DNA of 24,736 bases, taken from IMG/VR virus record IMGVR_UViG_3300038675_000170, positions 1-24,736 of that record; one strand, 5' to 3'. Source of the DNA: a virus. Taxonomy: Duplodnaviria; Caudoviricetes. Made by a program: the position numbers and the translations under genes. Shown one piece after another: positions 4,082-23,942 of this stretch (within the stretch, counting starts at the first letter, position 1; every line of letters starts with the position of its first letter). The notes beneath the pieces were generated by a model. That model did no database searches and was not told the origin of the DNA. It saw only the letters and a program-made list of their open reading frames with translations.

Positions 4082-4103
4082 TTATTACCCCCCTGCTCGT
4101 TTT

Positions 4104-5165: not shown

Positions 5166-5466
5166 TCTTTTTCCCTTTCTTTTGTTTTCTCCCCGGCTTC
5201 ACTTTGCTTTTGATCCCCCACCTTGAGTACCACCTGCCGAGGTTCTTTTCGTTCACCCTGAATAATCCGTCCTTTACTATTTTTAACCTCAGAAGCTTGG
5301 ATGCCTTATCCTGTGAGGTCAACAGCCGGACGATGCTGATGTTCATCTCGTCTGCGATCATTGCCCAGGACCAACACTTTGAAGCGCGGTCGTATAGGTA
5401 GTCCTCTAACTTCCACCCGCTGGAAGCTTCGAACAACAGGACGAGGTCGCTTTTGAACTCTTTCAT
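5155..5466 (-). CDS. Basic hypothetical protein, 103 aa (possible DNA binding)
   Basis: ATGA overlap with upstream gene; Lys-rich C-terminus; SWAMIADEM resembles an HTH helix. Confidence 0.7.
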   Translation of the reverse strand: MKEFKSDLVLLFEASSGWKLEDYLYDRASKCWSWAMIADEMNISIVRLLTSQDKASKLLRLKIVKDGLFRVNEKNLGRWYSRWGIKSKVKPGRKQKKGKKNAI

Positions 5467-6644
5467 TGTTTGCCTTTCGGGATCGCCCTGGTGAGGAAGT
5501 TCGCATAGTGGTCTATTTCGTCATCGGACAATCCGAGCAGCGAGTCCCGCTTGTAGAAGTTCTTGACGTAGCCCTCTATCTCGTCGCGGGTAAACGCCTG
5601 GGTCCCGAGTTCTACCACCTGGATTATCTTACCCAGATGATTTACGGCCTTGTTGAGCTCCTGCTCTGTCATGAACTTCGTCCCGGTCTTTTGAAACTGC
5701 TTCTGGATATATGCCGTCATCAGCGCCGGCGCGTACCCGAGTTGCTTCAATTGCGCCCCCAGGAGCTTTATGGCTTCGGGGCCTTTTAGCGTGGCCTTTA
5801 GTTCTTCTGGCTCTTTGTCCAGACTCTCGATAAACCCGTCCTCGTGGTCTTCCGGCTGTTCTTCTGCCTCCACGACCGCTTCGATGGGTTCTTCCACGAA
5901 GTGGTCCTCGTGGGTTTCGTCCGGGGCCGGCAGTAGCGCTTTTGGCGACTCGGTTGCTATCGCCTTTGTGGAGTTCTCGCGCATGGCGTTTTGCAGGGTC
6001 CCCTCGATAGACAAGCTTATCACGTAGACCGTCTTTGCGCGGCCTTCGGCCTTGACCGTTCTTGGGCTGAGGATCAGCCGTAGCGGTACGCCCGATATCC
6101 GTTTATATATCGTCTGGACAAGCTTCAGCCCGGCGTTGACGTTTATGATCGAGTGAAACGAGCTTGTGTCGAGTTGCCACACGCCGAGTCCGGGGACCTT
6201 GGGGAGCAGGAACTGAAGCGAAGCCATCGGGCGGCATTTGCGGTTGATCTTTTTGCCGTCTTTTATGAAGTCCTTTTGATGAGGACACCCTTCGCATTTT
6301 ACCTGCTTTTCCCCGGTCTTTTTGCCGTCCTTGTCGAGAACTATCTCGGTAGCGTCCACCCCGTCGCCCTTGCATATCAGCGTGCTAAACGAATACCTTT
6401 TCATGAACTGCGGGAATATTTGGTCCGGATCGTCTATCGGAAAAATGATGTCCAGCGCTTTTGGCTTCTCGCCGTACGCCCGGCGCACTTCTTCCATTAT
6501 CGCTTCGTCGTTGGGATCAACCACGAAGTAGTCTGTCTTTTCAGGATACTCAGCCCCGGACTTTTCGGACTTCTTTTTTATACCAAGCCGGATTTTACCC
6601 ATTCTGGGAAGCCTGGCGATCTCTGATATTCCTTTAATCGGCAT
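5463..6644 (-). CDS. phiC31 Gp3-like (recombination directionality factor-like) replication/recombination protein
   Basis: N-terminus MPIKGI..RLPRMGKIRLG..YP...DYF, CKGDG, C/C/C cluster, LQFLLP..G.GVWQLDTSSFHSI as remembered for the Gp3-like family; acidic linker and helical C-terminus. Confidence 0.75.
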   Translation of the reverse strand: MPIKGISEIARLPRMGKIRLGIKKKSEKSGAEYPEKTDYFVVDPNDEAIMEEVRRAYGEKPKALDIIFPIDDPDQIFPQFMKRYSFSTLICKGDGVDATEIVLDKDGKKTGEKQVKCEGCPHQKDFIKDGKKINRKCRPMASLQFLLPKVPGLGVWQLDTSSFHSIINVNAGLKLVQTIYKRISGVPLRLILSPRTVKAEGRAKTVYVISLSIEGTLQNAMRENSTKAIATESPKALLPAPDETHEDHFVEEPIEAVVEAEEQPEDHEDGFIESLDKEPEELKATLKGPEAIKLLGAQLKQLGYAPALMTAYIQKQFQKTGTKFMTEQELNKAVNHLGKIIQVVELGTQAFTRDEIEGYVKNFYKRDSLLGLSDDEIDHYANFLTRAIPKGKQ

Positions 6645-6649
6645 ATGAA

Positions 6650-6820
6650 TTATCCCCCTATCTCTTTTATTTCGAACTCGTACTCTCGCTCGCCGTCCAG
6701 TGCTCTTTCAAGCTCGGACGCATCAATGGCCACGTCCTCTTTTTCCCGTTGGAGAATGCGGTCATGTACCAAGTCTACGATCTCCGACCCCTTCATCACC
6801 ACCTTTACTGTTCTTTTCAT
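6650..6820 (-). CDS. Hypothetical protein, 56 aa (MKRTVKVVMKGSEIV...)
   Basis: Start moved from 6862 to ATG 6820: GGAG RBS and ATGA overlap with the upstream small ORF. Confidence 0.7.
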   Translation of the reverse strand: MKRTVKVVMKGSEIVDLVHDRILQREKEDVAIDASELERALDGEREYEFEIKEIGG

Positions 6821-6984
6821 ATTACTCGCTCCAGTCTTGCGGGACGTGCGCGCATAAGACAAAATGACAATTTCAGCGAGTCCTGCGTGTCATCGGCTTT
6901 TGGGGATTGGTATTCTACCTTCATGCCTTTTGCTAACGGCCTTGAGAGGACTTCCTTCGCCCTCTCGTACTCCTTTAGTATCAT
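6817..6984 (-). CDS. Hypothetical protein, 55 aa (MILKEYERAKEVLSRPLAKG...), absent from ORF track
   Basis: GGAGG RBS, ATGA overlaps at both ends; fills the gap exactly. Confidence 0.7.
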   Translation of the reverse strand: MILKEYERAKEVLSRPLAKGMKVEYQSPKADDTQDSLKLSFCLMRARPARLERVI

Positions 6985-7169
6985 GAGGTTAAATCCTCCA
7001 CTTTCTTTAAGGCTTCTTCACGGTCTCTGGCTTCGAACGGACCCACAACCTCTTCGCAAAAAGGGCTTTCTTCGGCCTCCGATATATCTAATGCGTCAAA
7101 GTACCTTTTTGCCTGGTATGTTCCACTTGTGTGCTTATATCCCCACCAAAGGTTCCCTTTATCCCTCAC
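6981..7169 (-). CDS. Hypothetical protein, about 62 aa (GTG start; ...WWGYKHTSGTYQAKRYF...)
   Basis: GGGGTGA RBS before GTG 7169; the ORF-track start at 7235 lacks an RBS. Confidence 0.7.
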   Translation of the reverse strand: MRDKGNLWWGYKHTSGTYQAKRYFDALDISEAEESPFCEEVVGPFEARDREEALKKVEDLTS

Positions 7170-7906: not shown

Positions 7907-7935
7907 ATCATATACTACCCGTAGGCAAAAGTCAA
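7907..7935 (-). promoter_or_regulatory. sigma70/sigmaA promoter for the ssb operon
   Basis: TTGACT (7935-7930), 17 nt, TATGAT (7912-7907), then AGGGGGTG RBS. Confidence 0.8.
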
Positions 7936-9232: not shown

Positions 9233-9760
9233 TCACTTTATCTCCCCCAGTATCTGCCCGATCATGTTTTTGACTTCGTCCGGTCCGGGTATCCGGTCCG
9301 GGTCCGGTTGAGCATTTTGAGAAAAATCCCTGTCTTTTGAATTGTCTTTTGAAAGAGTGTCTTTTGAGTGTGCTCTTTTAGCCACTGGCAAAGTGTCGGA
9401 AAAGCCACTACCTGTGACCATTTTAGCCACTACCTCTGGTGCCTTTTTAGCCAGTGGTCTTTTAGCCACTACCCACTCTTTAGTGTTTTTGTTTAAGCTA
9501 TAGCAAAAATTGGTCTTTAGTAGTGCTCTTTTAGCCACTAACCCTTTTAGTACCCGGCAGAGACGGCGGTGTTCTATTCCCGTTGCGCTCTCGAACTGTG
9601 ACAGGGGTATTCGGTCTATTTTTTTATTCCAGCCGTATGTTTTTCTTATCACCACAAACAAAACCCTCCACTCGGAGCCGGAAAGCGGGATCTCCGCAAA
9701 GTCCTCAAGAAGTGTATTTGCTATGCGTATATATCCGTCTTCAATCTGCGGGCCTCTCAT
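9233..9760 (-). CDS. lambda O-like replication initiator
   Basis: IEDGYIRIANTLLE...VVIRKTYGWNKKIDRIPLSQF matches the Phage_rep_O N-terminal domain; internal iteron cluster. Confidence 0.88.
   Translation of the reverse strand: MRGPQIEDGYIRIANTLLEDFAEIPLSGSEWRVLFVVIRKTYGWNKKIDRIPLSQFESATGIEHRRLCRVLKGLVAKRALLKTNFCYSLNKNTKEWVVAKRPLAKKAPEVVAKMVTGSGFSDTLPVAKRAHSKDTLSKDNSKDRDFSQNAQPDPDRIPGPDEVKNMIGQILGEIK
9370..9540. repeat. Iteron cluster TTTTAGCCAST, likely replication origin
   Basis: Copies at 9376, 9421, 9445 (variant), 9460 and 9529, partial at 9403; 17-mer GTGCTCTTTTAGCCACT at 9370 and 9523. Confidence 0.85.
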
Positions 9761-9926
9761 TCCCTTGCTCCTTACTTAATACTTGATCCTTAATGTCGTT
9801 ACTGAAAAACCAGAAGTGCTTCATGACCTGATCCTTGATGATTTGAGGCGTGTTGATTTCGTCAAGCGAGTTGAGAAGTTTTGCCAGGTGTCGGTTTGTG
9901 AGTTGCTTTAGTTTCGCTTCTTGCAT
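9741..9926 (-). CDS. Hypothetical protein, 61 aa, first gene of the replication operon
   Basis: TAAGGA RBS directly after a consensus promoter. Confidence 0.75.
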   Translation of the reverse strand: MQEAKLKQLTNRHLAKLLNSLDEINTPQIIKDQVMKHFWFFSNDIKDQVLSKEQGNERPAD

Positions 9927-9951
9927 TTACTTTTTCCTTACCACAATCGCT

Positions 9952-9980
9952 ATCATACGCCCGCGTCAGATTTCTGTCAA
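9952..9980 (-). promoter_or_regulatory. sigma70/sigmaA promoter for the replication operon
   Basis: TTGACA (9980-9975), 17 nt, TATGAT (9957-9952). Confidence 0.88.
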
Positions 9981-10031
9981 GCCCTTTTCCGTACCTTTAG
10001 CGAGAATTTAAAAGTAACGTTTTTTTAGGAG

Positions 10032-10070
10032 CAAAATCAAAGCGCCGGAGTTCATAACGCTCCGGCGCTT
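10032..10070 (-). terminator. Intrinsic terminator closing the late operon
   Basis: 11-bp stem AAGCGCCGGAG/CTCCGGCGCTT, 9-nt loop, followed by TGATTTT on the minus strand. Confidence 0.8.
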
Positions 10071-10160
10071 GACCGGGTCCGGGGCCTGCGGTTTCGGATA
10101 GGGGGGTAATCCATATGCCAACCACCTGAAGCCCCGGACGCGGCGCCCCCCCTATCCTTG
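10071..10160 (-). ncRNA. Candidate structured antisense RNA (3'UTR-derived)
   Basis: Interleaved stems 10147-10157/10096-10106 (11 bp) and 10131-10139/10077-10085 (9 bp, extendable); loop antisense to 6640-6662. Confidence 0.6.
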
Positions 10161-10163
10161 TTT

Positions 10164-10508
10164 TTATGTTCCGAGCTTTTTCTTCACAAGCTCTTTCATC
10201 GAGTTGAATATTGTCTGGACAATCCACCTTCTCACTCCGAGCGGTATCCAACCCGTCCATTTAGTGTTTCCCATCCAATCAGCGGCGGCATTCAACGCTT
10301 CTTCCGGGGTCATGGATATTTTTACCTTCATCTCATTGACCGCGGCAATAGCGTCCCGCGCCTTAGACTCCAATCCAAAGACCGCCACGAGCAAGGCCAG
10401 TATCACGGAAATCGGCCCGCTGTTGTTTCCTATGAACGCCCACACAGCAAGCGCCCATCCCCAAGCTCCACTCGCTATCGACTGTAGAATTTCTATCACT
10501 CCACCCAC
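10164..10508 (-). CDS. Holin-like membrane protein (start possibly GTG 10499)
   Basis: One or two N-terminal hydrophobic segments, basic C-terminus KKKLGT; last gene of the late operon; function inferred. Confidence 0.55.
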   Translation of the reverse strand: MGGVIEILQSIASGAWGWALAVWAFIGNNSGPISVILALLVAVFGLESKARDAIAAVNEMKVKISMTPEEALNAAADWMGNTKWTGWIPLGVRRWIVQTIFNSMKELVKKKLGT

Positions 10509-14893: not shown

Positions 14894-15264
14894 CGGATGT
14901 TGGCACTTCCGACCTCCCATGCCACGGGGATGAAATCTCCCCGGCGTGTTTCTTTTTCGAACGTTTCTCTCGTGATCCGTTCCTTGACCCCGTCATCGTA
15001 CGTGCATCTCTGGAAGCACTGGAACAGTAAGTCCTCGACTTCTTTTGAGGCAAGAATGTCTATGAATGCATCGGCCAACCCTCCGAAGTTTTTGATGTCC
15101 ATATCCTGGAAAGACCCCATATCAAATTTGTCCGGGAGCTTAGAAGCCACCCCACCTTCCCTGGCTGCTTTTAGAACAGCCCTGAATAGCTCGAACGCTA
15201 TTCCGTAGCTTGATAATGTAATTTCAACCTTTGCGCCGGACGGCGCTGTGTACTGAATGGCCAT
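14821..15264 (-). CDS. Tail assembly chaperone (gpG-like), 147 aa
   Basis: Start moved to ATG 15264 (AGGGGGG RBS); lies before tape measure and carries a slippery heptamer. Confidence 0.8.
   Translation of the reverse strand: MAIQYTAPSGAKVEITLSSYGIAFELFRAVLKAAREGGVASKLPDKFDMGSFQDMDIKNFGGLADAFIDILASKEVEDLLFQCFQRCTYDDGVKERITRETFEKETRRGDFIPVAWEVGSANIRPFLSHLPSLLKNAPLPGTNASPQ
14887..14893 (-). promoter_or_regulatory. Programmed -1 frameshift heptamer C CCT TTT
   Basis: CGC CCT TTT TTG in frame 0 gives X XXY YYZ; -1 frame reads CCC TTT TTT GAG and stays open. Confidence 0.8.
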
Positions 15265-15283
15265 TTTGTACCCCCCTTTGAAT

Positions 15284-15901
15284 TTATGCGGACTTTTTAG
15301 AGCAGAACTTGCGAGGCGCTGCGTTCTTCTTGATGCCGAGTTTTTCCCTGAGCTCTTTCTCGTCATTCGCATCCATGCGGAAGTCTTCCACCACGCCCTT
15401 AATGATTTCCTCGACTTTTGCTTTCCAGTCGGCCTGTTCCCTAACCTTTCGCTCTGCGTCGGACACAGAGTTCTTCTTGGCCACATTGAAGCGCCCTATA
15501 TCTATAATACTTATGTCGCTACTATCCGATCCGAACACCTGGCTTATAATGTCTTTAACTTCGCTTCTTGATTTGCCGGATATTTCAAATTCATAGCTAC
15601 CTCCGCCACCGCCTGCGTCCGAAAATCCTTTGCTTTTAAGCGCAGACTCTCTGCTTTGTGAATAATACTCTTTGTCCACGGATATCATCCATGATTTCCC
15701 GCTCGCGTTCTTTTTCAACGTCAGGCTTGTATGCCCGCCCAATGGATTTCTTAGGTCAGCCACTGTAGTCCCAAGGTTGTCAGCCAGCTCTTTAATTGTT
15801 TTCGGGCTGCCAGCTTGGGCATAGGTTAAATCAAAAGCTTTGCAATATTCTTTTATAGTTTGAATATCCTCATTCTTTTTTACACTACAGTATTTTGCCA
15901 T
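15284..15901 (-). CDS. Hypothetical 205-aa protein with four KKN motifs, possible processed internal virion protein
   Basis: AAGGAG RBS; inserted between tube and chaperone genes. Confidence 0.75.
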   Translation of the reverse strand: MAKYCSVKKNEDIQTIKEYCKAFDLTYAQAGSPKTIKELADNLGTTVADLRNPLGGHTSLTLKKNASGKSWMISVDKEYYSQSRESALKSKGFSDAGGGGGSYEFEISGKSRSEVKDIISQVFGSDSSDISIIDIGRFNVAKKNSVSDAERKVREQADWKAKVEEIIKGVVEDFRMDANDEKELREKLGIKKNAAPRKFCSKKSA

Positions 15902-16392: not shown

Positions 16393-17892
16393 TTATGAAA
16401 TCTGCACGATCACGTCTGCGGAGTGTATCGCTCCGGCTTCTTTAACGGCTATCTGCACAAGGGGCGCTTTTCTGGAATTGCGATCCGCAGCGCTCTGTTG
16501 CGCTATCGGAAGCGAGTAGATGTAGTACCCAGCGTCCGTTATATTCCTGCGCAGGTCTTCCGGGTTGCCGAACGTTGTCGGGTTGGTCCAAGTCAGCCCA
16601 CTGGCCAGGTATCCGTTCCTTATCCCCTGTAAACATACGCTTGCGAATGCACCCTTCAGCCCGCTCATGCCTGGCTCGGTCTGCGGGATCTTTGTGTTGG
16701 TCATGGCCAGGTGATTAAACCCTGCGACCTGCAGAGCCAGTTTCAACCATAGCTGCCCGTAGATTTGATCCGCGTACCCGTTTGCGCCGTAAGACAATAC
16801 CGCTGGATATCCCGCCACTGAAACGTAGATATCAAATCCATAGAGCGTGGCCTGTTGGTCGATATTGTCGCTTGCGGCATCCGGGTCCGGGGTTATCCCG
16901 GCCAATTGCTTGAGGTTCATTGTACACATCGTGTTTGAACCCGCCCAGTTAATTCCAAACAATCTCGATGCATATGCGGCCACGGCCTCCCTTGCATCGG
17001 CCTCGCCTATGGTATACAGCAAGCAGCGAGTGTGGGTAAGCCCGGACTGTTGAATTACTTTAAATAGCGTGTCGATCTCGGCGGCGTCGTTCCTGCCGAT
17101 GAATGCGAGCTTGTCCTGTGTCTGCATATAGGCCGCGAAGTTTAGGACGTTTTCGACGGTGTCTGATATGGTCGAGAGTATTCCGAAGTAGAAAACCTCG
17201 AGCTTTGTGCGCTCGACAGCTTCGACGATGTCCTCTGCGGACAGGGCGGCTTTGCCGTTGACTATCTTAACGTTGCCCGTCCCGTTGAGGTATGTTTCAC
17301 CTGATAGATCAGTTCCTGCGGCGGGAGCCGAAAGCTTGGTCACCTTGGAGTCTACTCCTGTAGTTGAGGAAGTAAACAAGAATGCGCCTTGGCCTGAGTT
17401 TGCGGATGCTACGTACGCGCACGTCCCGCCTGTCAAGGCAGTATCTATCACTGTCGCAACATCGTCCAGGTCTTCAGCATCTGAGAAATCAAGGTCCGTT
17501 AGGCTTTTTTCTACCCCATCAAAGGATATCTTAAACGCGCCATCCTCCACGAGCTGAAACGCTTCCAGTGCACCTGGTGCCAATGTTTGCATGATCCCAG
17601 CCGTTGCCTCTGCGTTCTCTTTCAGAGGGATTACAACAAGATACCCGTTGCCAGTGAGTATATTAGGGGTTTGAGAAAATATCGCCACGGCCTGTTTGTA
17701 AGTATCAGACGCGAGGCCGAAATCTGTAAGCACTCCACCCGGATCCCTGTAGATTTTATATCCGTCATCGCCGAATGTGACGTTCGGGGTTTCGTCGGTG
17801 AACAGAGCCAGCGAATTTACATTGAACCCCGGCAGTCCCTGCGGAGTCGCCATCAGCGTTACGTTGATGATTTTGCTAAGTGATACTTCCAT
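16393..17892 (-). CDS. Contractile tail sheath protein (DUF3383-like)
   Basis: LSKIINVTL start, YKQAVAIFSQTP, TMNLKQLAGI, KIPQTEPG, GYYIYSLPIAQQSAADRNSRKAP, AGAIHSADV. Confidence 0.93.
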   Translation of the reverse strand: MEVSLSKIINVTLMATPQGLPGFNVNSLALFTDETPNVTFGDDGYKIYRDPGGVLTDFGLASDTYKQAVAIFSQTPNILTGNGYLVVIPLKENAEATAGIMQTLAPGALEAFQLVEDGAFKISFDGVEKSLTDLDFSDAEDLDDVATVIDTALTGGTCAYVASANSGQGAFLFTSSTTGVDSKVTKLSAPAAGTDLSGETYLNGTGNVKIVNGKAALSAEDIVEAVERTKLEVFYFGILSTISDTVENVLNFAAYMQTQDKLAFIGRNDAAEIDTLFKVIQQSGLTHTRCLLYTIGEADAREAVAAYASRLFGINWAGSNTMCTMNLKQLAGITPDPDAASDNIDQQATLYGFDIYVSVAGYPAVLSYGANGYADQIYGQLWLKLALQVAGFNHLAMTNTKIPQTEPGMSGLKGAFASVCLQGIRNGYLASGLTWTNPTTFGNPEDLRRNITDAGYYIYSLPIAQQSAADRNSRKAPLVQIAVKEAGAIHSADVIVQIS

Positions 17893-19360: not shown

Positions 19361-20257
19361 TTACGGCTGTGTCCTTCCCCTGGCGACTCCCGGCTTGCCT
19401 TGTATTCTGGGCCAAACGTAGGCGATATACGTGCGCCCGTAGCCGGTTGTTGCAAGCTCGCCCCATGTCGGGCTTGATGAGAAGTGTTCCGGCACCGAGA
19501 AGCTCACGCTCACGCTGCCTACGCTTTGCGAGCTTGCTATACTCTCGCCCTTGGAGTCGATCCCTGATCCGGCAAGCCTTAAGTCTTTGACCATATAATG
19601 AGCCGTGAGGTACAAATACGCCTCTACCAGCACCTGCCCGTTCTCGAACAGTTCCGGGTTTATAAGCGTCAGCGCCTTCCCGAACCCTTTTTGTATGTCC
19701 ATGTCAAGGACGTAATTGTCCACATCCACGTTCACAGCCTCCCACGTCGGGGGGTCTGTGACCTCTGTGGGGATCACGCCCTGTGACGAGGTTAGGAGCA
19801 TTTTATAAAAGTTAACGTCATTGCCCACTTGGTACGAAACGATGTCGTCCTCGAAGTATTCCTTGGTAAGGCTGAAGGGCTTTAGGTACTTAAAGTCCCT
19901 TGTAAAATAATCCCTGAAATCCGCAGGCTCGATTGAAATAAGGAACGAGTCGTACGAGCTTGACGGTATAGTCCCATACGGGTACGGCCACACCCTCACT
20001 GGCGGTTCGGCCCATCCCGCGGGGTTGTATGTCAGTTGCCTGATTATGAGCGTATAGACGCCAGGCTCGTCCGGTATGAATTCGGCCTGGTAGTTCCCGT
20101 TCGTCAGCTCGTTGATTGTTACGGCTATCTGGTATGGGGTTCCGTCCAGGAACATTTCTATCACAAAATCCTCGGTTGTCAGCCCGAGTACAGGGTTGCC
20201 GTCCTCGTCTGCTACGTGGAGCGCTCCGCTGTAATACTTCTGGTCTATTTTATACAT
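19361..20257 (-). CDS. Head-tail adaptor (DUF4054-like) with extra domains
   Basis: C-terminal YLYLTAHY, SSQSVGSVSVSF, LATTGYGRTY; N-terminal Ig-like extension. Confidence 0.85.
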   Translation of the reverse strand: MYKIDQKYYSGALHVADEDGNPVLGLTTEDFVIEMFLDGTPYQIAVTINELTNGNYQAEFIPDEPGVYTLIIRQLTYNPAGWAEPPVRVWPYPYGTIPSSSYDSFLISIEPADFRDYFTRDFKYLKPFSLTKEYFEDDIVSYQVGNDVNFYKMLLTSSQGVIPTEVTDPPTWEAVNVDVDNYVLDMDIQKGFGKALTLINPELFENGQVLVEAYLYLTAHYMVKDLRLAGSGIDSKGESIASSQSVGSVSVSFSVPEHFSSSPTWGELATTGYGRTYIAYVWPRIQGKPGVARGRTQP

Positions 20258-21326: not shown

Positions 21327-23942
21327 TTATATCAAAGCCAATAAAGCCTGTAATTGAGTTTCGTTCAGGCTTGTTGAACCCAGAGTGAGTCCTGCGGCAT
21401 ATACCGTCCCGCTGTAATGCCCGTCTTTCCAGCGCAGGTCTTCCGTTCCATTATCATATGCTCCGTCCTCTTGCCCGCACCAATCCCAATTCACCCACGC
21501 ATACTCGTCCGTTAAATTCATGCCGATAGAGCCGCTTGATGAAAAATCGGACTTTGCAAATATGATTTCAGGCTCGTCAAAATCTCCCTGTGCGAATATT
21601 CCCAAACTGTCGTAAACACCAAGAGCATAAGGGAAGGGAACGACTTCTGGTAAAGAACTTAGGGCCTCGCTTTGAAGAATTGGAAAAGTTATCTCAAGGT
21701 CAGGGACTAACGCTGAAAGGTCAACAGTCAGCTCTTTACTTTCAATGGCGGTGTTAGGGAACGAGAACCTGAAGAAATCGTCAAGCTCGTAATACTCGTT
21801 GCCGTAGTCATAGCCAAACACCTTCGGGTTCTCTTTGTCAGAGTCGTAGAATGTAAGGCTTGCATTTGTCTCTCCGTCCTTTGCTATTACGTTCGCAGAC
21901 TTCTGTAGGTAGACTCCTTCTTCTACTGAGCCTTCGTCGTCTCCATCGTCGAACAATCTCGTCATCCCGCTCATCACGGGTATTCTTGAATGAGAGTATT
22001 GCCCGTTCCTTACCTGCTTGTATCCATAGGTCAATTCCTCTCCCCAGAACCCAACGTGCAGGTCGTGGAAGAACCCTGTCGGGCCGTTCACTCCCGGCTG
22101 TTCTATCACGCCCAGGTATGGAAGCTCACGGCTGAAATCCGCAAATCCGAGATATAGATATTTGCCGTGGACTGCAAGCGTAAGCGGCATAGGAGCGTAA
22201 AACTTCTTTGCTACTATATATGGGTTTGCGGGGTCACGCACGTCAATGACATAAAGGTTCGGCTCGCTTGACGACCAATTCACCAGGTAGCAATATCCGT
22301 TGACGTATTTTACATAGCTTGACGGAGATACCAGGTCGGACAAAAGCGACGACACTATTGTCGGGGCCGTCTTGTTGCTCACGTCAACGATATAAAATTT
22401 AGGGTTGTCGCTTTCCATAAATGACAGTCCAGAGGCAATATAGACATAATCGCCCCAGACGTTCAGCGTCCATATACCGTCAGGGATATTGAGAGCGGAA
22501 CCGCCTACTACGGACATATCGGACGGGTCGGTAGCGTCTATTATCCTGAACATATCCGTCCCAAGCGTGGAGTTCCTGCCGCCTACATACACATATCCGT
22601 CCTGGACTTTGCACGTCCAACACACAAATGCACCGTCGCTTATTGGAACAATACTGTCGAGTATTGCGGGATTATCAACATCTGAAACATCTACGGAATA
22701 TAGCGTCTGCTGTCCTGTGACATAGACAACGCCATTCTCGTAATCAAGCGTAGCACCGCCACCACTATTTTCAAACCCCGTAAGTGCAGAGCCGCCCTTA
22801 ACGACAGGGTTTGTCGGGTCATGCACATCGACTATGCGGAACACATCCCCTCCCGTTGCTTCGAACGCGATATACAAATACCCGCCCTGATACCGTATGC
22901 CCTTAATGGCGTGTGCGGGAAGGTTTGTTATGGTTGTCGGGCTTACCTTAACAGGATTTGCGGGGTCTGCAAGAGAATATATCTGCAACGGACAGACTTC
23001 TTCTTCGTAGTATGTGCCAAGATACAGATACTTTCCGTCGGTGTCTATTGACCGTGCGGTGTTCTCAAGCCCTACCGCCGTTGTGATATCCTTCATCGTT
23101 GGGGCCAACCATGCGTCAACGGCTTCTGATGATGATATTCTTTCGTAAGCACTTATATTTTGACCGCACCAGAAATCACTCTCTGTAAGCTCAAGTGTGT
23201 TATTGTCAAAATCTGGGTAGAGTTCTATCCCGCCAGTCATTGCTCCTTCTGTGAATTGCAGGAATATTAAGCTATGGTTTGCGTCGTTGTCCAGATCGAA
23301 CGACGATATGCCAAACCTCATGCTCCACAATGCCGCATCAAGTCCGCTTTGCGAGGTCGTTGCCTTTATATGCGGAAACGTCACTTCTCCTAATCCAACC
23401 GCTGTCAAATCTACCGTTTCTTGTTTCATGCGGATATTCAATCCCGTATGTCCGAACATCATTCTTATCTCTGAATTTTCTTCGTCAATTTCATACATAG
23501 ATATAAAGAAGGGGTATTCAATATCATCAGCGTCAGGAGCTTCCCCCATAATAAGCCCAGAGTTAAGATTGAACGTGTAATAATAAAATTCCGTGTCTTC
23601 GTCTGCGGTGCTGATAATGGGCTGTGTAAATTGATGAAAAACATTCGCATCTTCTTCGTCTTGTCCGAATGCCGCACAAATGCATTTGACTTCCTCCGGC
23701 CCCATGTTGGCGATATCTGCCAAGAAGAACCCAGACGCAATGGCAACAGGCATATGTTCTATTTCTTCGAGTTCTTCATTCCATGTATAGCCAGTTAAAT
23801 ACGCAATTTCCTCAAATTCTTCTACGGCTATGTAGTGCGGGGTTGCGGACGTGGCATCGCCGAGCTTTGTGTCGAAGCCGAGTTCTCCAAAGCCAGCAAC
23901 GTACAGGTTGCGGTCTATATATTTATCGCCTTTAGTTCGCAA
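21327..23942 (-). CDS. LVIVD-repeat beta-propeller protein, putative receptor-binding/fibre protein
   Basis: About seven repeats such as GGYLYIA..FRIVDVHDPTNP, FYIVDVSNKTAP and LYVIDVRDPANP; fibre-like C-terminus YDNGTEDLRWKDGHY; TTG start. Confidence 0.82.
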   Translation of the reverse strand: MRTKGDKYIDRNLYVAGFGELGFDTKLGDATSATPHYIAVEEFEEIAYLTGYTWNEELEEIEHMPVAIASGFFLADIANMGPEEVKCICAAFGQDEEDANVFHQFTQPIISTADEDTEFYYYTFNLNSGLIMGEAPDADDIEYPFFISMYEIDEENSEIRMMFGHTGLNIRMKQETVDLTAVGLGEVTFPHIKATTSQSGLDAALWSMRFGISSFDLDNDANHSLIFLQFTEGAMTGGIELYPDFDNNTLELTESDFWCGQNISAYERISSSEAVDAWLAPTMKDITTAVGLENTARSIDTDGKYLYLGTYYEEEVCPLQIYSLADPANPVKVSPTTITNLPAHAIKGIRYQGGYLYIAFEATGGDVFRIVDVHDPTNPVVKGGSALTGFENSGGGATLDYENGVVYVTGQQTLYSVDVSDVDNPAILDSIVPISDGAFVCWTCKVQDGYVYVGGRNSTLGTDMFRIIDATDPSDMSVVGGSALNIPDGIWTLNVWGDYVYIASGLSFMESDNPKFYIVDVSNKTAPTIVSSLLSDLVSPSSYVKYVNGYCYLVNWSSSEPNLYVIDVRDPANPYIVAKKFYAPMPLTLAVHGKYLYLGFADFSRELPYLGVIEQPGVNGPTGFFHDLHVGFWGEELTYGYKQVRNGQYSHSRIPVMSGMTRLFDDGDDEGSVEEGVYLQKSANVIAKDGETNASLTFYDSDKENPKVFGYDYGNEYYELDDFFRFSFPNTAIESKELTVDLSALVPDLEITFPILQSEALSSLPEVVPFPYALGVYDSLGIFAQGDFDEPEIIFAKSDFSSSGSIGMNLTDEYAWVNWDWCGQEDGAYDNGTEDLRWKDGHYSGTVYAAGLTLGSTSLNETQLQALLALI

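Follow-up and report, generated by a model that had tools for sequence, protein, structure and literature searches.

The 3' end of a late phage transcript is fairly likely to be an antisense RNA that acts in trans and blocks translation of an early, probably ssDNA-binding, Gp3-like gene. The element is encoded in a 24.7-kb virus record (24,736 nucleotides), which was analyzed at full length and is called the window here. A small RNA that lowers translation of its target late is likely because the loop of the element complements the ribosome-binding site (RBS) of the Gp3-like gene and because the corresponding segment of a distant relative, G001, matches an unrelated gene in the same slot. A conserved hairpin, target alleles that stay paired in close relatives, and the equivalent pair in G001 support an antisense RNA made from the minus strand.

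All main genes of the window are on the minus strand and are co-oriented. The structural block encodes a contractile tail (sheath, baseplate, amidase) and runs from 24.7 to 10.2 kb. It is followed by replication/recombination genes that are RepO-like, ParB-methylase, SSB, Gp3-like (PF18897), SbcD-like, and SbcC-like. In transcript order, the junction between the two blocks is composed of the stop codon (10164) of a 114-aa ORF, the element, a GC-rich stem (10040-10070), and a sigma-70-type promoter, TTGACA-17-TATGAT (9952-9980, minus strand; 11/12 in the promoter scan). This promoter is the likely start of the early operon containing the target, and G001 has an equivalent 11/12 site at L001:10547-10574. 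The promoter scan of the window found none dedicated to the antisense RNA. A second sigma-70-type promoter (7907-7935, minus strand; 10/12) is located between the methylase and SSB genes and may give a shorter early message that includes the target. The 114-aa ORF (10164-10508, minus strand) is the last of the structural block and has a hydrophobic N-terminus. It was labeled holin-like in the initial annotation, a label without backing from Pfam or PHROG, neither of which assigns the ORF to a family.

The guide (10097-10124, minus strand) has a 23-nt core at 10097-10119 and is antisense to the Shine-Dalgarno (SD) sequence, spacer, AUG, and first codons of the Gp3-like gene. The target site (6635-6662, minus strand), 3.4 kb away, holds the RBS, start codon, and first codons and also covers the stop of an upstream 56-aa ORF (6650-6820). 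The claimed 21/23 match of the core to 6640-6662, covering SD and AUG, was exact in sequence and coordinates on recheck. The 28-nt pairing of 10097-10124 with 6635-6662, with four G-U wobbles and one true mismatch (C-A), was likewise borne out. The wobbles had been taken to favor RNA pairing on the minus strand, an argument that proved weak because the five differences are all transitions, for which a 4:1 split is expected by chance in about one case in five (calculated by hand); the duplex energies compared are -41.4 and -38.1.

The predicted duplex between the guide and the Gp3-like start is -42.2 kcal/mol, and the next best non-self site in the window reaches -31.6. When the guide is compared with all gene starts of the window, the Gp3-like start is best, and the next among the 35 others is at -27.7. 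The guide score of 22.7 ranks first of 1784 gene starts from the loci compared in that ranking, where the next scores are 21.0 and 18.2. Against 32 starts, this score was reached by 0/3000 shuffles, with the same result when the C6 core was kept. The landing of the match on a gene start is not chance. The length of the match is not decisive by itself in a large scan, since 4/175 order-4 Markov windows contain some inverted match of at least 21/23 anywhere, and the window has another of 20/22 (19944-19965 with 21779-21800, between two coding regions) that is treated as chance. The RBS of the SbcD-like nuclease gene (4083-4093, minus strand) is a possible secondary target with an 11/11 seed match and a weak duplex (-25.9); by this complementarity, control may extend to that gene.

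The element was said to match no recognized RNA family, and the Rfam search agrees, with 0 hits at gathering in the window. At E<=10, only two chance-level hits occur in 9800-10400, neither of them C4, and none to C4 occurs in L001:10200-10700. Literature searches, which left aside supplements and the table of 38 uncharacterized phage sRNAs in PMC12197685, found no description of the element.

The carrier of the guide is a hairpin (10072-10146, minus strand) with arms at 10129-10139 and 10077-10087 and the C-rich seed in its loop. Its folding energy is -39.7 kcal/mol (z -3.07), and 0/200 shuffles are as stable. The proposal that the guide fills a hairpin loop is therefore confirmed for the hairpin itself; the loop is only partly open, with about 8 nt (the C run) unpaired in the MFE structure and 13 in the centroid. 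Immediately upstream is a purine run, GGAUAGGGGGGG (10146-10157, minus strand), that mimics an RBS and forms an 11-bp pairing with the seed (10096-10106) in a predicted alternative or co-transcriptional fold. This mimic-seed fold is less than 3 kcal/mol from the final fold (-59.5 vs. -62.4 kcal/mol) and is predicted to dominate until the 3' arm is transcribed. In these fold models, the upstream mimic could mask the seed. The mimic loses 2 nt in the related runs X7 and X8 and is kept in run X4, despite the different upstream gene there.

Downstream of the hairpin is a terminator-like stem (10040-10070, in the feature at 10030-10070, minus strand) with a weak U tail and a loop motif, TTATGAAC, at 10050-10057 that is common to G001. 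Of the terminator proposed initially, the GC-rich stem stands and has a compensatory pair, but the consensus terminator scan did not call it, with its 9-nt loop and weak U tail. The element (10072-10157) thus lies between a stop codon (10164) and this stem, the location of a 3'UTR-derived sRNA, though the terminator call is weak. A contig of run X19, a run labeled RNA-Seq but flagged as probably DNA, spans the stem.

The TTATGAAC loop is identical in the window and at L001:10462-10469, though the stems around it differ, and is possibly a protein-binding site on RNA or DNA. Taken further, the repeats and this loop would be sites for a protein or a DNA structure at the late/early junction, with RNA pairing incidental. 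The folding of the plus strand of the hairpin (z -2.93) would suit such a role. It is nevertheless very improbable, as the match is centered on the SD in both phages and it is the minus-strand stem of the hairpin that is lengthened by G-U pairs.

Close relatives of the window were compared in runs from activated sludge, wastewater, and unspecified metagenomes. The contigs of X4, X7, and X8 have no substitution listed in the 81 nt of hairpin and guide (10065-10145). The surrounding contigs differ at 73/1366 nt in X7, 40/918 nt in X8, and 4/209 positions in X4. Counting X7 and X8 once, this gives modest evidence that the hairpin is under constraint (P about 0.01-0.03 by hand). In X7 and X8, the pair 10046/10064 of the terminator-like stem has changed from C-G to T-A, which is a compensatory change. 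In X4, the upstream 114-aa ORF is replaced and the sequence is retained through the purine run (10146-10157). Related runs have other sequence in place of the stretches 6862-7165 and 10151-10503, so that variable cassettes adjoin both the upstream ORF of the target and the element.

Among the differences listed, with 6654-6662 outside the listing, the target is changed in X4, X7, and X8 at 6645, 6648, and 6653. The changes at 6648 and 6653 remove exactly the two mispairs of the window, and the change at 6645 adds one; the modeled duplex with the changed target is -46.7 vs. -41.4 for the window. A chance match would not be repaired in this way, and guide and target are therefore related by history or function. 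X2 and L065 are identical to the window at the target, and cluster members retain KEIGG at the protein end. Compensatory changes between guide and target, proposed as a check in the initial annotation, were not found in X4, X7, or X8: the guide is fixed, and the 6645 mismatch is unrepaired.

These comparisons bear on a relic without function, in which an ordinary 3' UTR would hold the start of the ancestral gene as an inverted copy whose plus strand reads as a 4-codon ORF. The guide sequence equals the consensus of the two observed target alleles, as such a copy could, and paralogous gene starts on opposite strands score similarly in other phages. By itself, the count of 0 guide changes against 3 target changes also lacks significance (1 in 8, calculated by hand). 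A relic is distinctly unlikely all the same, as the whole hairpin is unchanged, the downstream stem covaries, and G001, with another sequence that matches another gene in the slot, is left unexplained.

Further searches for close relatives gave little. A pattern search of IMG/VR for guide and target had 0 hits, and a search with the 17-nt 3' arm had 8, every one in an unrelated context. GenBank phages had no match by blastn of 9900-10250 or by tblastn of the Gp3-like protein. Metagenome contigs of close Gp3-like relatives end short of the element.

G001 is a 40.5-kb IMG/VR genome found through its baseplate gene. Of the 37 window proteins, it has 17, which keep their order and are 34-65% identical. 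Its junction is composed of the last late ORF, a C-rich segment, a stem with the TTATGAAC loop, and the 11/12 promoter. As in the window, the stem has a weak U tail and is not called by the terminator scan; the G001 hairpin is weaker than that of the window and is not alignable with it. No Gp3-like gene was hit by tblastn in G001, and its absence rests on tblastn because the PF18897 search gave a signal in no control. The Gp3-like slot is instead occupied by an unrelated 149-aa gene, between the SSB gene and a 125-aa gene. The small ORF before this gene and the one that precedes Gp3-like in L067 share 50% identity (E 3e-16), and no relation is detectable between the 56-aa ORF before the target in the window and the 68-aa ORF in G001. 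The equivalence of the two slots follows from gene order and the L067 ORF match. The 149-aa protein resembles clusters with PF25690 in 23-28% of members, which is a lead only.

The G001 segment was located by position and loop motif before its target was searched for. Its best same-strand hit in an ungapped scan is the SD region of the 149-aa gene, where L001:10420-10440 pairs with the start at L001:13544 at 18/21 Watson-Crick positions. The pair is reciprocal: across the 40.5 kb, no other same-strand antisense site scores better for L001:13544 than the segment, and among 55 starts none scores better for the segment than L001:13544. The segment-start duplex is -35.8 vs. -29.5 for the next. The pair score is reached by 0/3000 full shuffles and 6/3000 core-kept shuffles; the 38-nt segment used for these tests was delimited with the hit already known and spans almost the entire stop-to-stem gap. 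Anti-SD 38-mers of the compared loci score as high in 13/7240 cases, the window and G001 pairs included. The first, cruder duplex scan did not have the G001 pair in its top 12. The score of 15.3 equals that of the best opposite-strand chance hit, 15.2, and support therefore comes from position. Across relatives, seed-target complementarity is 21-22/23 in the close ones, for the part of the target listed (6654-6662 outside it), and 18/21 between other sequences in G001, the one distant genome.

The strand opposite the G001 guide lacks an SD+ATG, as no ATG follows its SD-like G run. A decayed gene start, which the initial annotation named as grounds for refutation, is weakened by this result. 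Alignments of the ParB-methylase, 125-aa, and SbcD proteins returned only G001 and two distant SbcD loci from IMG/VR as further family members and nothing from GTDB genomes; Gp3-like alone as family query returned 0 loci.

The target gene (5463-6644, minus strand) is Gp3-like by Pfam (PF18897, E 1.9e-51) and has conserved cysteines. The recombination directionality factor (RDF) of phage TG1 is described as a functional gp32-like SSB that binds ssDNA, resembles T4 gp32, and is similar to the phiC31 and phiBT1 RDFs (PMC11795197). By analogy, the Gp3-like protein is probably a gp32-like ssDNA-binding protein rather than a recombinase. Given this account of the TG1 RDF, the element would more likely dampen an ssDNA-binding replication protein than shut off recombination, as was proposed initially. 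The AlphaFold model of the Gp3-like protein is uninformative (pLDDT 49, domain unreliable), and no solved structure related to it by sequence was found. A Pfam scan of 26 window proteins found no cognate large serine integrase, the window being a 24.7-kb fragment.

Antisense sites are not a general property of Gp3-like genes. They are not enriched at distant Gp3-like starts (2/51 vs. 26/735 control starts; 88 distinct starts), and none was found in 30 viral loci (2 duplicates left out; 9 starts misplaced). The element is therefore a feature of this phage family and not of PF18897. A hit in L010 with a score of 15.0 was rejected because it lies inside a baseplate gene. An unrelated phage pair, L074 and L088, with Gp3-like proteins that share 80% identity, has an anti-RBS segment between genes, 1.6-1.9 kb downstream of where Gp3-like starts. 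In L074 (L074:11624-11661), a perfect 13-bp hairpin displays the segment in its loop (10/10, z -4.27); in L088 (L088:6488-6537), a GC hairpin directly follows the segment (11/11 plus extension). The differences between the two segments parallel those between the two RBSs; the segment scores are within background, and the segments are a lead only. In L107, a perfect 21-nt inverted match joins the start at 17047 and a site at about 17455, 408 nt apart; it flanks a 140-aa ORF and covers its leader. Pairing between 3' and 5' UTRs or the ends of a mobile unit are possible explanations.

For an antisense RNA acting in trans, the steps can be proposed as follows. The minus strand would be transcribed from late promoters to the stem at 10040-10070, and the 3' end of the late transcript, whole or trimmed, would pair with the early message. 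The open C-rich loop would seed on the G-rich SD and zip to 23-28 bp, and pairing that spans the AUG and the stop codon of the preceding ORF would block initiation. By transiently masking the seed, the upstream RBS mimic would leave the RNA quiet while nascent or until trimmed. The mimic would also keep a strong anti-SD off the neighboring late genes during synthesis. The guide, in turn, would track whichever gene holds this replication-module slot.

A more tentative proposal is a late-to-early RNA feedback switch. Here, the mimic, the guide, and the conserved-loop stem would be a fixed cassette that silences the DNA-binding gene of the slot. The guide would be rewritten upon replacement of the target, and the mimic would mask the seed until the RNA is complete or trimmed.

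The same complementarity could also act in cis on late read-through RNA, where the guide would fold back on the Gp3-like RBS of its own molecule and silence only read-through messages. The genes are co-oriented, and in both phages the stem that would end the transcript has a weak U tail and was not called. Repression by distant anti-SD sequences on the same mRNA is also reported in vivo (PMC12697547), as is anti-SD pairing in cis in PMC3868564. A cis mechanism is unlikely, since 3.4 kb of translated RNA separates guide and target, far more than the several hundred nucleotides in the cited work, and a seed displayed by a hairpin before a conserved 3' stem better fits a free RNA.

The element would be a variant of phage trans-encoded antisense RNA that is distinct from C4 and CI, judged by its sequence and predicted fold. 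The C4 RNA of P1 and P7 (PMC5320573) is the closest in plan: as described there, it is phage-encoded and trans-acting, displays an RBS-occluding sequence in a loop, and has a guide that varies with its target; the element resembles it in having a loop complementary to the RBS of a gene encoded elsewhere. C4 consists of three stem-loops, with separate loops a' and b' for targeting, while the element has one guide hairpin and a terminator-like stem and gives no Rfam hit. C4 is described in an immunity operon with an antirepressor target, whereas the element is at the end of the structural operon and is aimed at the replication module.

The C4 precedent also suggests superinfection exclusion, in which the RNA would build up in an infected or carrier cell and, when a related phage enters, silence the early gene of that phage rather than time its own cycle. 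A fixed guide, with target alleles that vary yet stay paired, fits this proposal. Exclusion is improbable, as no repressor or integrase was recognized among the proteins of the window, a fragment, nor a promoter of its own for the RNA, and a late RNA in a lysing cell would have little time to act.

The CI RNA of P4 (PMC4825925) is similar to the element in that, as described, its precursor has its own complementary site, seqA, upstream of the guide, in the position of the mimic at 10146-10157. CI is reported to cause premature termination at flanking sites, whereas the main target here is an RBS 3.4 kb away, and the element has no Rfam hit. The upstream 11-bp site is present, and no CI-type downstream site is found directly downstream among the best matches. 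The icaR 3'UTR of Staphylococcus aureus (PMC3868564) is described as using a C-rich motif to pair with the SD and block initiation. That pairing is within one mRNA and by a short motif, whereas here the pairing would cover 21-28 nt, and a terminator-like stem and a new promoter separate the element from its target, which is probably on another transcript.

The antisense RNAs P22 sar, lambda OOP, and aQ are cis-encoded. As in the present proposal, they are phage antisense RNAs described as controlling the translation or mRNA stability of the phage itself (PMC12197685). They oppose lysis-lysogeny regulators, whereas the element lies 3.4 kb away from its target and matches it imperfectly. In the cited literature, phage antisense RNAs mostly control lysis-lysogeny regulators or host genes. 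If the present reading is correct, an RNA from the end of the structural operon would lower an early replication gene and couple virion assembly to DNA metabolism without a protein. Re-aiming at a non-homologous slot gene would be a natural case of guide reprogramming, and unknown genes could be assigned to a function through the RNA that targets them.

Other features of the two genomes were observed in passing. In G001, two HNH-like ORFs were recognized by eye (L001:9010-9498 and 15049-15624), one of them reversed within the lysis region. The RepO-like gene of the window contains three 22-nt direct repeats (9369-9543) that are iteron-like and are likely the replication origin.
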